Shown in pieces: positions 33,996 through 34,318 of a stretch of 64,000 nt of DNA. The DNA lies in the NCBI GenBank assembly GCA_964588165.1, contig CAZPMS010000006.1:3425-67424 (forward strand), given 5' to 3'. How positions within the stretch are numbered: the first letter of the stretch is position 1; every line of letters starts with the position of its first letter. The translations under genes were made by a program, and so were the position numbers. Source of the stretch: an uncultured Gammaproteobacteria bacterium. Lineage in GTDB: Bacteria; Patescibacteriota; Patescibacteriia; UBA1558; UBA10009. A model generated the notes under the pieces. The model had not been told where the DNA came from. It did not search any database and was given only the letters and a program-made list of their open reading frames with translations.

Positions 33996-34086
33996 GATGG
34001 AGCCGTTGTGCGGACTCGAACCACAAACCCCTTCCTTACCCCCGCAAGATTTCGTTTCACTCAATCTGCGGGGCAAGCATGGAAGT

Positions 34087-34202
34087 ATATCCTGCCAATA
34101 GCCTGGAGCCGAAACGGGGATTCGAACCCCGGACCCCTTCCTTACCATGGAAGTGCTCTACCAACTGAGCTATCTCGGCGCCTGGCTATTGGCAAAAAAT
34201 AA
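34087..34202 (-). mobile_element. 116-bp insertion unit: intact tRNA-Thr(GGU) bracketed by 11-bp inverted repeats, 4-bp target duplication
   Basis: IRs (plus strand) are tgccaatagcc 34093-34103 and ggctattggca 34184-34194. The flanking direct repeat is aagt at 34083-34086 and 34203-34206, which corresponds to ACTT of the outer tRNA at positions 26-29. Confidence 0.7.
34104..34179 (-). tRNA. tRNA-Thr (anticodon GGU)
   Basis: 76 nt GCCGAGA-TA-GCTC-AGTTGGTA-GAGC-A-CTTCC-ATGGTAA-GGAAG-GGGTC-CGGGG-TTCGAAT-CCCCG-TTTCGGC-T-CCA. Confidence 0.9.
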
Positions 34203-34318
34203 AAGTGCTCCCTGCCCCGCTTACTCCGAACAAAAGTAGGAGTTATGCGGGGTACCAACTGAGCTACAACGGCAATAATGTTTTTTTAAAAAAACATATT
34301 CTTATGGCATAACTTCTT

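Follow-up and report, generated by a model that had tools for sequence, protein, structure and literature searches.

A complete tRNA-Thr(GGU) gene nested in a split tRNA-Thr(GGU) gene, and its possible link to small GIY-YIG nucleases of CPR bacteria

In the window (the whole 64-kb stretch of DNA analysed here), a whole tRNA-Thr(GGU) gene on the minus strand (34273-33998) is split by three precise inserts: a cassette of 116 bp and, in the D loop and the anticodon loop, one hairpin each. The only intact tRNA-Thr(GGU) gene of the window lies inside the cassette, whose cargo is, as the initial annotation had proposed, a replacement tRNA of identical anticodon. The host is bacterial, as indicated by ribosomal protein L33 (Pfam) and by homologues of a TPR protein that are named as Patescibacteria (CPR). 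We think it somewhat more probable than its negation that the locus is a palimpsest of Thr(GGU) genes and represents the ORF-less form of a clade-wide selfish family that overwrites tRNA genes. The small GIY-YIG nuclease family encoded next door is the likely engine.

Anatomy of the nested tRNA-Thr(GGU) locus

All features described here and below lie on the minus strand. The outer gene begins with the piece GCCGTTGTAGCTCAGTTGGT (34254-34273), which comprises the 5' strand of the acceptor stem (GCCGTTG), the 5' strand of the D stem and the D loop up to GGT. A hairpin (CCCCGC...GCGGGGCAGG; 34211-34253) has been inserted at this point precisely and without duplication. It is followed by the 3' strand of the D stem and positions 26-29, GAGCACTT (GAGC ACTT; 34203-34210), which includes the left copy of a 4-bp duplication. 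The cassette (34202-34087) consists of a leader (34180-34202) with the inverted-repeat arm TGCCAATAGCC (34194-34184), the inner intact tRNA-Thr(GGU) (34104-34179; acceptor GCCGAGA/TTTCGGC, T stem CGGGG/CCCCG; ARAGORN, Rfam tRNA 67.6 bits) and a trailer (34087-34103) whose inverted-repeat arm GGCTATTGGCA (34103-34093) stands right behind the CCA. It contains no ORF, and it splits the 5' strand of the outer anticodon stem. The outer gene resumes with positions 26-34, ACTTCCATG (34078-34086), i.e., the right copy of the duplication and the anticodon stem 5' strand, and is interrupted again after G34, within its own anticodon, by the second precise hairpin insert (CTTGCCCCGC...GCGGGG; 34040-34077). 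The 3' piece (33998-34039) supplies the remaining anticodon arm, the T arm, the acceptor 3' strand CAACGGC and TCCA, and ends in CAACGGCTCCA. Every element named in the initial annotation was found where it had been placed.

On the locus as it stands, ARAGORN and Rfam call the inner gene and leave the outer gene uncalled. Deleting the 116 bp alone gave no ARAGORN call in default mode; in intron mode the sole call was a spurious tRNA-Asp with an intron. Once all three inserts and one ACTT copy were deleted, ARAGORN called a tRNA-Thr(ggt) of 75-76 nt, confirming that the outer pieces belong to a single gene. The 11-bp perfect inverted repeat and the 4-bp ACTT duplication described initially are likewise real, ACTT being the only overlap at the nested junctions. 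An 11-bp inverted repeat within 25-nt flanks has a probability of ~5e-5, and the 11-mer occurs exactly twice in the 64 kb, once per strand. The repeat extends to imperfect arms of 27 nt (81% complementarity), which run into the acceptor stem and end 1-2 nt short of the duplication. No other TGCCAATAGCC-bracketed unit is present in the 64-kb window, and fetched loci with the 11-mer are copies of the same genome only.

The 276-nt stretch is predicted to fold into a nested cloverleaf (-126.4 kcal/mol, z = -6.3; none of 200 shuffles was equally stable) in which all outer stems are kept and each insert forms a self-contained hairpin. Searching the inserts for a group I intron or another Rfam family returned chance-level hits only, and the group I intron covariance model nowhere in the window reached the gathering score, nor did it have a hit at E <= 10 within 31800-34600. 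A promoter and terminator scan of the cluster gave counts no greater than those in shuffled sequence.

The locus is repetitive, and mis-assembly can occur in such regions. Five contigs from other samples (ENA, JGI, Logan) are, however, 100% identical to the 2.6-kb cluster wherever they overlap it, three of them covering it in full including the nested locus, and a sixth contig shows one mismatch in an overlap of 181 bp. Since the identical locus is present in contigs from other samples and analogous structures occur in unrelated assemblies, an assembly or chimera artefact is hardly conceivable. No empty-site polymorphism was seen among the six contigs, all of which carry proteins of the window.

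tRNA ghosts, hairpin modules and GIY-YIG genes

Partial tRNA copies, termed ghosts, lie near four of the five tRNAs in the window and probably also near the fifth (Asn). A third Thr(GGU) remnant and those beside Tyr, Thr(UGU), Trp and probably Asn had been overlooked in the initial annotation. The third Thr(GGU) remnant, 'ghost a' (34319-34371), consists of GCCGACATAGCTCAGTT, a double hairpin (34354-34325) and GGTAGA. In its acceptor it agrees with the intact allele of L095, the closest relative, and its hairpin is identical at 36 of 39 positions to one in L050, a host whose TPR identity to that of the window is 39%. The tRNA-Tyr 5' ghost (33896-33995) covers positions 1 to about 41, with a D-loop hairpin (33972-33951) and a canonical double hairpin (33938-33903) after G34; the intact tRNA-Tyr(GUA) (33554-33638) follows directly 3' of a nuclease ORF. 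This ghost is identical to the live gene and forms a direct repeat flanking the insert, with the gene regenerated. The Thr(UGU) 5' ghost (33309-33415; positions 1 to about 46) is a chimera that combines the Thr(GGU) acceptor GCCGTTG with the same D-loop hairpin as in the outer Thr(GGU) gene and a CCACC... hairpin after TTTG. Located 22 nt beyond it, the intact tRNA-Thr(UGU) (33212-33286; acceptor GCCGAGA) is a vertical orthologue as in L009 and L012.

The intact tRNA-Trp (32223-32149) is enclosed by a leader/trailer inverted-repeat clamp (32136-32240) with arms of 24 nt and 83% complementarity. Its 3' ghost (32035-32130) starts from about position 27; the anticodon loop of this ghost contains a perfect palindrome of 26 nt, and the T loop a hairpin. 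By eye only, we recognised a degenerate 5' ghost (GCCGGGTAGTT) with a double hairpin (48911-48953), probably of tRNA-Asn, 25 nt 5' of the intact tRNA-Asn. The tRNA-derived segments of the ghosts are 100% (Tyr, Thr(UGU)) and 90% (Trp) identical to the live copy. In every case an intact copy with the same anticodon adjoins the ghost, and the ghosts are mostly truncated.

The ghosts carry a conserved 35-nt double hairpin, whose signature was observed 135 times versus 0.25 expected. In this module 98.9% of cells are paired, 4 pairs have changed on both sides and the covariation score was reached by none of 500 shuffles; these statistics derive from a curated gap-free subset, used in place of a covariance model owing to the ragged 3' end of the family, and since we chose both the subset and the structure, they lean towards that structure. 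The signature is nearly palindromic, which confounds a test of strand orientation. The modules are almost confined to tRNA remnants, where they sit at loop positions with ~90% identity across distant hosts, and the canonical ones are inserted without any duplication. GC-rich hairpins are present in ordinary intergenic spacers as well. Homologues of the outer D-loop insert occupy the same site in the Thr(UGU) ghost of the window and in L017, and homologues of the anticodon-loop insert (YTTGCCCC...) the same site in L017, L023, L050, and L061. The two hairpin inserts of the nested locus are not incidental; they belong to a precise, duplication-free class that marks tRNA remnants clade-wide. The hairpins accumulate: the Tyr ghost of L009 has the same anticodon-loop module as that of the window and lacks the D-loop hairpin, and the L053 ghost carries no hairpins.

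The ORF upstream of tRNA-Tyr (33601-33885) encodes a GIY-YIG nuclease of 93-94 aa with a core of ~80 aa (Pfam PF01541, E = 7.6e-12), and its stop codon lies inside the tRNA gene. A second GIY-YIG ORF of 74 aa (32259-32483; PF01541, E = 7.8e-13) is located upstream of tRNA-Trp. In an alignment of 27 homologues, the Tyr, Gly, His, and Glu columns are invariant and the Arg column is near-invariant. A profile search identified UPF0213 and SLX1 structure-specific nucleases as the nearest solved structures (1zg2 BH0048, E = 3.2e-13, profile positions 2-74; 1ywl EF2693, 1.2e-9; SLX1 chains, 3e-5 to 8e-4), with I-TevI matching far more weakly (7e-3). A linked DNA-binding domain is absent, the 74-93-aa proteins being bare catalytic domains.

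Metagenomes yielded 482 relatives. Among 80 metagenomic loci, surveyed because they carry a homologous nuclease, the ORF ends at most 70 nt from a tRNA on the same strand in 61 of the 74 that could be evaluated. An upstream exact match of at least 10 nt to the adjoining tRNA was found at 43 of 57 loci, where we estimate, from sequence lengths, a chance of ~0.03 per locus. Most matches begin at tRNA position 1, and at most of these 43 loci the tRNA part forms a direct repeat flanking the insert, so that the gene is regenerated. At tRNA-Tyr, occurrence of the nuclease is sporadic: the window, L009, and L096 have the ORF and L012, L008, and L011 do not. Nuclease identity is 54-67% regardless of host distance; the protein is too short for firm branching, and its tree was used only qualitatively. 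A scan of eight ORFs around the cluster showed no transposase, and the element has no integrase, the ORFs between ghosts and live tRNAs being GIY-YIG genes only. None of the 61 tRNA-adjacent nuclease genes lies beside Thr(GGU), and only neighbourhood and analogy connect the 116-bp cassette with the nuclease. A phage origin was considered and rejected, as both the 3' half of the inner allele and the nuclease family are missing from the viral collection.

Thr(GGU) alleles and recurrence of nesting

Eight closer relatives (L095, L012, L096, L014, L009, L011, L008, and L007; TPR 58-73% identical) carry an un-nested gene at the syntenic site, right behind the TPR gene. The outer gene is orthologous to this uninterrupted gene, relative to which the 116 bp is an insertion, in agreement with the initial annotation. 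The acceptor GCCGTTG/CAACGGC is present in six of the eight; L095 has GCCGACA, and the L014 copy starts with GCCGTTG before the contig end cuts the gene off. The same acceptor is found in the Thr(GGU) of about 15 related lineages, and the outer T arm is nearly identical to those of L008, L012, and L095.

The initial view of an older outer gene invaded by a foreign inner one is too simple, since we find three layered alleles with one common lineage-specific body. The outer, inner and closest-relative alleles differ mainly in acceptor pairs 5-7:66-68 and in the T stem. A single base pair separates the inner acceptor from the allele found intact in the closest relative, and the 5' strand of the inner acceptor equals that of the genome's own Thr(UGU). 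The common body means that gene conversion or an in-situ origin is needed, which blurs the distinction between resident and incoming. The inner allele itself is absent from all fetched loci.

Nested Thr(GGU) cassettes recur in L017, L023, L050, L053, and L061, and a nested tRNA-Ile in L042. The inverted repeat is different in each. Its initial interpretation as the terminal repeat of a transposon family had to be abandoned, because the 11-mer is confined to this genome and the repeats of the other cassettes are unrelated to it. That the repeats are all unlike argues for structural clamps rather than transposon ends, and the repeat behaves as a leader/trailer helix that lengthens the acceptor stem. 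Such clamps are a mark of inserted tRNAs: leader/trailer repeats of at least 8 nt flank 11 of the 35 tRNAs with a 3' ghost versus 13 of 113 others. The junctions overlap by 4 bp here and in L023 (where AACT is duplicated at the same tRNA position, 26-29), by 7 bp in L017 and by 0 bp in L061 and L053, and they fall at tRNA positions 19/20, 26-29, 26-32 or 39/40. The ghosts of L017 and L023 have lost T arms or acceptor ends; L023 also shows a tandem repeat of its 3' ghost, and L043 tandem arrays. In the four of the five nested lineages whose contigs hold the TPR gene (L017, L023, L050, and L053), TPR is only 32-39% identical, whereas the closer relatives are all un-nested. This discordance would favour horizontal spread or recurrent gain.

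Origin of the locus and comparison with known systems

In the reading that we favour, a new complete tRNA copy would be placed in or beside a resident gene, often together with an ~80-aa GIY-YIG gene of the SLX1/UPF0213 type. The working tRNA would be retained and the 5' and/or 3' parts of the resident gene would persist as ghosts, the still more fragmentary third Thr(GGU) allele upstream being part of this layering. We infer an order of events in which the nuclease acts as initiator and breaks the DNA of the tRNA gene, probably by way of DNA structure and not of a long sequence. Repair could then proceed by copying of the cassette, with conserved tRNA sequence as the homology in a homing-like manner, or by ligation of the cassette into a staggered cut, which would explain the 4-bp duplication. 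We propose that, since the cargo tRNA compensates for the destroyed target, insertion would be nearly neutral and could pass from one host to a distant one. With identical ghost segments nearby, correct folding and maturation of the live tRNA are probably secured by the clamp helix and the hairpin modules, which may also interrupt direct repeats and thereby prevent recombinational deletion of the element. Against this reading counts that duplications of 4 bp are seen more typically in transposition or staggered-cut ligation than in gene-conversion homing. An intact tRNA in the same genome would also keep any target wholly within the tRNA. Further points against it are the ORF-less cassette, the nuclease without a DNA-binding domain, the six contigs among which no empty site was seen, and the body common to the outer, inner and closest-relative alleles.

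The initial view, a classical non-autonomous, MITE-like transposon of 116 bp with terminal inverted repeats, a 4-bp target duplication, a transposase encoded elsewhere and a tRNA picked up by chance, would account for a repeat that reaches nearly to the insert ends (in its imperfect 27-nt arms), for the duplications at one and the same site here and in L023, and for other inverted-repeat-bounded inserts of variable content at the anticodon-loop site, such as that of ~130 nt in L061. We nevertheless consider it quite unlikely. The unit is present in a single copy in 64 kb, and its 11-mer is missing from all other loci; the repeats are entirely unlike among cassettes and hence offer no conserved binding site for a transposase, and a scan of eight ORFs around the cluster revealed no such enzyme. 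Furthermore, the junctions vary in overlap (0, 4 or 7 nt) as well as in position (19/20, 26-29, 26-32, 39/40), and canonical hairpin modules were inserted duplication-free. Rather unlikely, too, is a purely local rearrangement by palindrome-stalled replication, slippage, template switching, tandem duplication, gene conversion and decay of redundant copies. It would leave unaccounted for the tight and oriented association of ghost, ORF and live tRNA (61/74 loci), the near-identical hairpin modules of very distant hosts, a nested design found in distant lineages but in none of the eight closer relatives, and live alleles whose different acceptor and T stems are co-adapted. What speaks for it are the three alleles with their common lineage-specific body, the identity of the inner acceptor 5' strand with that of Thr(UGU), the chimeric Thr(UGU) ghost, the tandem arrays of L043 and the tandem 3' ghost of L023, together with the GC-rich hairpins of ordinary spacers.

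The 276 nt might also be a single, functional nested precursor transcript, with the inserts as intron-like or expansion segments and the outer tRNA either matured or used as a scaffold for processing, regulation or as a decoy. The predicted fold, in which all outer stems and self-contained inserts are retained (z = -6.3), the precision of all three inserts, the compensatory change that maintains clamp and module stems, and the continued identity of ghost segments with the live copy would suit such a role. It is very unlikely all the same: most ghosts elsewhere are truncated to 5' or 3' parts, those of L017 and L023 having lost T arms or acceptor ends, the anticodon itself is interrupted by the anticodon-loop insert, and neither a group I intron nor another Rfam family was matched. 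Bacteria are not known to have a tRNA splicing endonuclease pathway.

Beyond the palimpsest reading, we advance the following more tentatively, as something we would slightly sooner doubt than accept. The loci may represent an undescribed, self-compensating class of selfish CPR elements that overwrite tRNA genes and combine a replacement tRNA with the 35-nt double-hairpin module and a minimal structure-specific GIY-YIG nuclease. The tRNA clamped within a tRNA would be the ORF-less, horizontally spreading form of this class, and repeated rounds would drive the turnover of acceptor alleles. This turnover could reflect an arms race in which each arriving allele is resistant to the nuclease that had cut the one before it. 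The initial annotation knew of no described bacterial element that carries a tRNA into its own paralog, and we found none in the literature. Nor did that search, with most subscription journals outside its scope, yield any account of small GIY-YIG genes that flank tRNAs, of tRNA remnants with hairpins or of nested bacterial tRNA genes.

Few genes are as conserved and essential as those for tRNAs. If our reading is true, tRNA genes, and especially their acceptor stems, would have a new route to turn over and to move between distant bacteria, and a widespread ~80-aa GIY-YIG family of no assigned function would gain a biological role. For CPR biology, these elements would constitute a third kind of stable-RNA gene insertion, beside the known rRNA insertions and group I introns. 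Clamp helices and the double hairpin are candidates for insulating the live tRNA from identical decoys in the same transcript, or for recognition by a structure-specific nuclease. As for annotation, such remnants are missed or mis-called by tRNA finders, and assemblies may break at these loci.

REP/BIME, Rickettsia palindromic elements and Correia elements are short GC-rich hairpin units that colonise genomes, sometimes inside genes including RNA genes. The modules described here are likewise short, GC-rich and hairpin-forming, but unlike REP or MITE units they occur almost exclusively in tRNA remnants, at loop positions, with no target duplication and no transposase identified. Archaeal multi-intron, split and permuted tRNAs are spliced via bulge-helix-bulge motifs, and the interrupted genes are the functional ones. 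As in those genes, the D loop, the anticodon loop and other non-canonical sites are interrupted here by short structured inserts; in contrast to them, the host is a bacterium, most of the interrupted copies have been truncated, and there is always an intact copy beside them. Group I introns interrupt tRNA genes in Patescibacteria (PMC13011429), i.e., they are mobile insertions in tRNA genes of the same phylum. GIY, hairpin or pseudogene are not mentioned in the main text of that study (PMC13011429). At our loci no group I intron was detected; what interrupts the tRNA genes is either a hairpin of 20-45 nt or a complete tRNA.

Integrative elements that target tRNA genes regenerate the target gene and leave a tRNA fragment (PMC9897764 for fragments). 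With them our loci have in common an insertion in a tRNA gene, a full gene that is kept and a displaced partial copy as a direct repeat. Elements of this type generally span kilobases and code for an integrase; it is usually the 3' part that they replace, and their fragments are clean, whereas the units found here measure 0.1-0.4 kb, lack an integrase, replace the 5' part or the whole gene and leave fragments that bear hairpins. In Allomyces atp6, a mobile mitochondrial GIY-YIG ORF, reportedly described by Paquin, Laforest and Lang in 1994, is said to bring a replacement gene end and to displace the resident end. There, as here, a selfish ORF supplies a functional copy of the disrupted part and the resident part persists as a pseudogene fragment, but the targets are organellar and protein-coding, the fusion is in frame, and there is no nested complete gene, clamp helix or hairpin module. 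SegB of phage T4, a free-standing homing endonuclease of the GIY-YIG type, is encoded within a tRNA cluster; its target is the DNA of a tRNA gene, and adjacent tRNA genes are carried along with it (PMC2330249; also PMC13096335). A GIY-YIG gene among tRNA genes is common to both systems, with tRNA gene DNA as the SegB target and neighbouring tRNAs co-inherited. SegB is full-length with a DNA-binding part, is phage-borne, and is accompanied neither by partial tRNA duplicates nor by hairpin modules; the genes described here, unlike SegB, encode an ~80-aa catalytic domain nearest to UPF0213/SLX1 and lie on the chromosomes of CPR bacteria, between a ghost and a live tRNA.

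Anatomy of the nested tRNA-Thr(GGU) locus

Read from the sequence, the outer tRNA-Thr(GGU) gene (34273-33998, minus strand) begins with GCCGTTGTAGCTCAGTTGGT (34273-34254) and continues on the same strand through a 43-nt hairpin insert (34253-34211), GAGCACTT (34210-34203), the 116-bp insert or cassette (34202-34087), ACTTCCATG (34086-34078) and a 38-nt hairpin insert (34077-34040) to its last segment, GTAAGGAAGGGGTTTGTGGTTCGAGTCCGCACAACGGCTCCA (34039-33998). ARAGORN and Rfam call the inner gene alone, as a tRNA-Thr GGU at 34179-34104 on the minus strand (67.6 bits). The cargo is a replacement tRNA of the same anticodon, as the initial annotation proposed. 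The outer pieces had been taken to form one tRNA, and removal of the three inserts and one ACTT indeed yielded a 75-76-nt tRNA-Thr(ggt) in ARAGORN. Deletion of the 116 bp alone left ARAGORN without a call under its defaults, and intron mode produced just a spurious tRNA-Asp containing an intron.

The inverted repeat reported around the inner tRNA is real; 25-nt flanks would contain one like it by chance with a probability of about 5e-5. In the window, the 11-mer TGCCAATAGCC is present at exactly two places, one per strand; these are the two arms of the repeat, and it brackets no further unit there. Complementarity reaches 27-nt arms, prolonging the acceptor stem. The predicted RNA fold of the 276-nt locus is a nested cloverleaf (-126.4 kcal/mol, z = -6.3) in which all outer stems are paired, every insert is a closed hairpin and the inverted repeat forms a long helix bearing a perfect inner cloverleaf. 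Five contigs of other samples match the window at 100% across all of their overlap with the 2.6-kb cluster, three of them covering it entirely, nested locus included, and a sixth has one mismatch over a 181-bp overlap. These matches show that the nested-locus sequence is real.

The flanking genes encode fructose-bisphosphate aldolase, a TPR protein and ribosomal protein L33. TPR homologues carry the names Komeilibacteria, Parcubacteria, Uhrbacteria or Patescibacteria, and the host is a CPR bacterium. The ancestral order is TPR, Thr(GGU), Tyr, Thr(UGU), L33, a 136-aa protein and Trp; relatives are compact, the cluster spanning 940 bp in L008 (L numbers denote fetched related or metagenomic loci) versus approximately 2,340 bp in the window.

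Thr(GGU) alleles and recurrence of the nested design

In every one of the eight relatives with 58-73% TPR identity to the window's protein, an un-nested Thr(GGU) directly follows the TPR gene, and relative to this uninterrupted gene the 116-bp insertion is real. The outer acceptor (GCCGTTG...CAACGGC) is carried by the uninterrupted gene of L012, L096, L009, L011, L008 and L007; the gene of L014 also starts with GCCGTTG on a contig that stops about 30 nt into it. In the closest relative, L095 (TPR 73%), the gene is likewise intact and its acceptor is GCCGACA/TGTCGGC. The GCCGTTG acceptor is present in about 15 lineages, the edited outer gene differs from that of L008 at 7/76 positions, and the outer gene corresponds to the clade-typical Thr(GGU).

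The initial annotation described a tRNA within an older tRNA. The nesting stands, whereas the restriction to two layers does not: a third Thr(GGU) remnant, ghost a (34371-34319, minus strand), consists of GCCGACATAGCTCAGTT, a double hairpin and GGTAGA, and has exactly the L095 acceptor (we call a partial tRNA remnant beside a live copy a ghost). The derived anticodon stem CTTCC/GGAAG is common to the L095 gene and the outer and inner copies. Outer and inner copies differ at 12/76 positions, located at acceptor pairs 5-7:66-68 and in the T arm, and the L095 gene differs from them at 9/76 and 8/76, respectively; the 5' strand of the inner acceptor is identical to the one in the same genome's Thr(UGU). 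The body is common to the copies, which differ mainly in acceptor and T stems; this requires gene conversion among them or partly local origins.

The nested design recurs across lineages, with nested Thr(GGU) in L017, L023, L050, L053 and L061 and nested tRNA-Ile in L042, and ghosts flanking either side are common among many tRNA types. The L023 ghost stops at ...GAGCAACT and restarts at AACTCCATG, a 4-bp overlap at tRNA positions 26-29 as in the window; its junctions are similar (TTTAT... and ...GGATA..AT) and its inverted repeat, ATCCGCCGTC/GACGGCGGAT, is unrelated. Other nested cassettes have junctions at positions 19/20, 26-32 and 39/40, with an overlap of 0 or 7 nt. Where readable, the 5' ghost acceptor is GCCGTTG in L017, L053 and L061; L050 has the 5' fragment GCCGAGATA and a 3' ghost ending in CCAACGGC, and the live acceptor varies between cassettes. 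The D-loop hairpin of the outer gene is also found in L017, and its anticodon-loop hairpin in L017, L023, L050 and L061.

Perfect leader/trailer repeats of at least 8 nt surround 11/35 tRNAs with a 3' ghost versus 13/113 others (148 tRNAs); the longest are 11-17 nt and every sequence is different. Because the sequences all differ, the repeat is a structural clamp whose helix runs coaxially with the acceptor stem and has a 4x4 internal loop across from NCCA. It is not a conserved transposon end, so that the 11-bp repeat cited as evidence of transposition survives as a repeat and not as such an end.

Three nested or repeated loci showed further variation. At about 2000-2240 of L043, a tandem array of four units, each a 13-nt Thr 5' fragment, a hairpin, CAGTTGGTA and AAATAA, precedes an intact Thr(GGU); along the array, fragments with a GCCGTTG acceptor alternate with GCCGAGA (or GTCGAGA) ones, suggesting that replacement took place in repeated rounds. 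In L023 (1944-2200) the right inverted-repeat arm and the 3' ghost with hairpins are duplicated in tandem after the nested gene. The anticodon-loop site of the L061 ghost holds an insert of about 130 nt (150-290), bounded by a 15-nt inverted repeat and ending as usual (CTTGCCCCGC...GCGGGG), so bounded inserts can hold variable internal content.

Ghosts, hairpin modules and GIY-YIG nucleases

At tRNA-Tyr, the 5' ghost spans positions 1 to about 41, matches the live gene exactly and carries two hairpin inserts; a GIY-YIG ORF and then the live tRNA follow. This ORF (33601-33885, minus strand) is stop-free until tRNA-Tyr (33554-33638, minus strand) and extends 38 nt inside, its stop codon lying in the tRNA; nuclease mRNA and tRNA precursor must therefore share sequence. 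A long imperfect palindrome, CACTCGACTTC...GAAGTCGAGTG with more complementary segments, lies right after tRNA-Tyr (33420-33553, minus strand). Upstream of live Thr(UGU), a 5' ghost (33309-33415, minus strand) carries two hairpins and the GCCGTTG acceptor. It is a chimera of this Thr-GGU-type acceptor, found on no Thr(UGU) among the loci, with a UGU-type D loop and anticodon arm, and its D-loop hairpin is 91-100% identical to that of outer Thr(GGU).

tRNA-Trp has a second GIY-YIG ORF upstream, its own 24-nt leader/trailer repeat as clamp, and downstream a 3' ghost (32035-32130, minus strand) with hairpins in the anticodon and T loops. The ghost's anticodon loop contains a perfect 26-nt palindrome with zero spacer (32122-32097), the insert opens with CCACCCAGCC as in the canonical module, and 8 nt of T stem and acceptor are missing. 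By eye, a candidate ghost was identified 25 nt before the intact tRNA-Asn: a degenerate GCCGGGTAGTT similar to the tRNA-Asn 5' end, with a double hairpin (48911-48953, minus strand). The interval contains no nuclease ORF.

The ghost inserts follow the consensus CCACCGCC-nnn-GGCGGGGT-(C/G)CCGCC-nnn-GGCGG(G/C)A. The junction signature occurs 135 times in 286 kb versus 0.25 in shuffles, and 43/68 non-redundant same-strand matches sit within 200 nt upstream of the ORF. The module is conserved and its stems pair: a curated gap-free set has a mean column identity of 90%, 98.9% of cells paired, four pairs with changes on both sides and a covariation score unreached by shuffles, a test biased towards structure since the analyst picked both set and structure. 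Module insertions have no target duplication. Modules seem to accumulate over time; the L009 Tyr ghost has the anticodon-loop module and lacks the window's D-loop hairpin. That ghost also contains a hairpin-rich insert of about 215 nt (2921-3135) with GGGTC on each side, possibly a 5-bp duplication, and related sequence reappears after the live tRNA-Tyr. GC-rich hairpins also occur in ordinary spacers of the window (25193-25207, 43530-43547, 52422-52439 and 52468-52487), so hairpin units are not limited to tRNA remnants; one has the same sequence as ghost a's second hairpin (CCAGCCTTTGGCTGG), and GCGAGGGTTTAGCCTCGC appears in two places 9 kb apart.

A metagenome scan gave 482 confirmed relatives of the Tyr-linked ORF, and 80 loci were retained. 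The homologues are proteins of about 80 aa with conserved catalytic residues, their profile nearest UPF0213 proteins BH0048 and EF2693 and SLX1 structure-specific nucleases and far from I-TevI. Nuclease ORF, ghost and live tRNA are associated. The ORF ends at most 70 nt from a same-strand tRNA in 61/74 evaluable loci (Tyr 18, Ser 37, Pro 3, Thr-UGU 2, Cys 1), and in 43/57 that tRNA is matched exactly over 10 nt or more within the 400 nt upstream of the ORF. Most matches begin at tRNA position 1, and precise inserts in the D loop and, in the anticodon loop, after 'TG' often divide them into two or three pieces. Neither the nuclease family nor the 3' half of the inner allele was found in the viral collection. 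In L096 (1460-1920), two different Tyr 5' ghosts, each with a CCACCGCC module, surround one ORF, the near-resident allele before it and a ~60%-identical allele after; further downstream, a GCCGAGATAGCT ghost with a double hairpin precedes a GCCACCC Thr(UGU).

Spread, proposed mechanism and known systems

Nesting, nuclease and hairpins are discordant with host distance. The TPR protein is 32-39% identical to the window's in nested L017, L023, L050 and L053 (4/5 nested lineages with TPR on the contig), and none of the eight closer relatives is nested. The ghost a double hairpin is identical at 36/39 positions to one in L050 (TPR 39%). Nucleases are 54-67% identical to the window copy regardless of host distance, with a 65%-identical one at Thr(UGU) in a host with 26% TPR identity, and their tree has a large Tyr clade, with Ser isoacceptors mixed and Pro, Cys and Thr cases sporadic. 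Without proving it, this makes recurrent gains or horizontal spread more likely than one ancient event with many precise losses.

We propose that tRNA gene DNA is cut by a small GIY-YIG nuclease, probably a structure-specific one, and that a cassette is copied or ligated in during repair. For copying, the tRNA itself would supply homology in any host. By either route, the delivered tRNA would render the event nearly neutral. Clamps and hairpins may shield the live tRNA from identical ghost segments or, alternatively, interrupt direct repeats otherwise able to delete the element. Against a nuclease-driven origin stand the Thr(GGU) cassette without ORF, the lack of a nuclease copy adjoining Thr(GGU) in the loci examined, the enzyme's lack of a DNA-binding domain and the ascertainment of the loci via the nuclease; moreover, a staggered cut accounts for the 4-bp duplication better than gene conversion does, and an intact tRNA would still be a target.

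Among the nearest known systems, mitochondrial GIY-YIG ORFs bring a replacement gene end; REP- or MITE-like palindromes and archaeal multi-intron tRNAs are also close. So are T4 SegB (PMC2330249) and tRNA-targeting integrative elements with their leftover fragments (PMC9897764). A recent survey of Patescibacteria tRNA introns treats group I introns, and 'GIY', 'hairpin' and 'pseudogene' appear nowhere in its main text (PMC13011429). The initial annotation knew of no bacterial counterpart, and our literature search for small tRNA-flanking GIY-YIG genes, hairpin-bearing tRNA remnants and nested tRNA genes likewise found none. None of these five nearest systems unites a minimal nuclease and a clamp helix with a conserved hairpin module and a complete tRNA, whether regenerated or nested; we rate the element as a probable homing-type, self-compensating selfish insertion, and there is a real chance that the mechanism itself is new.
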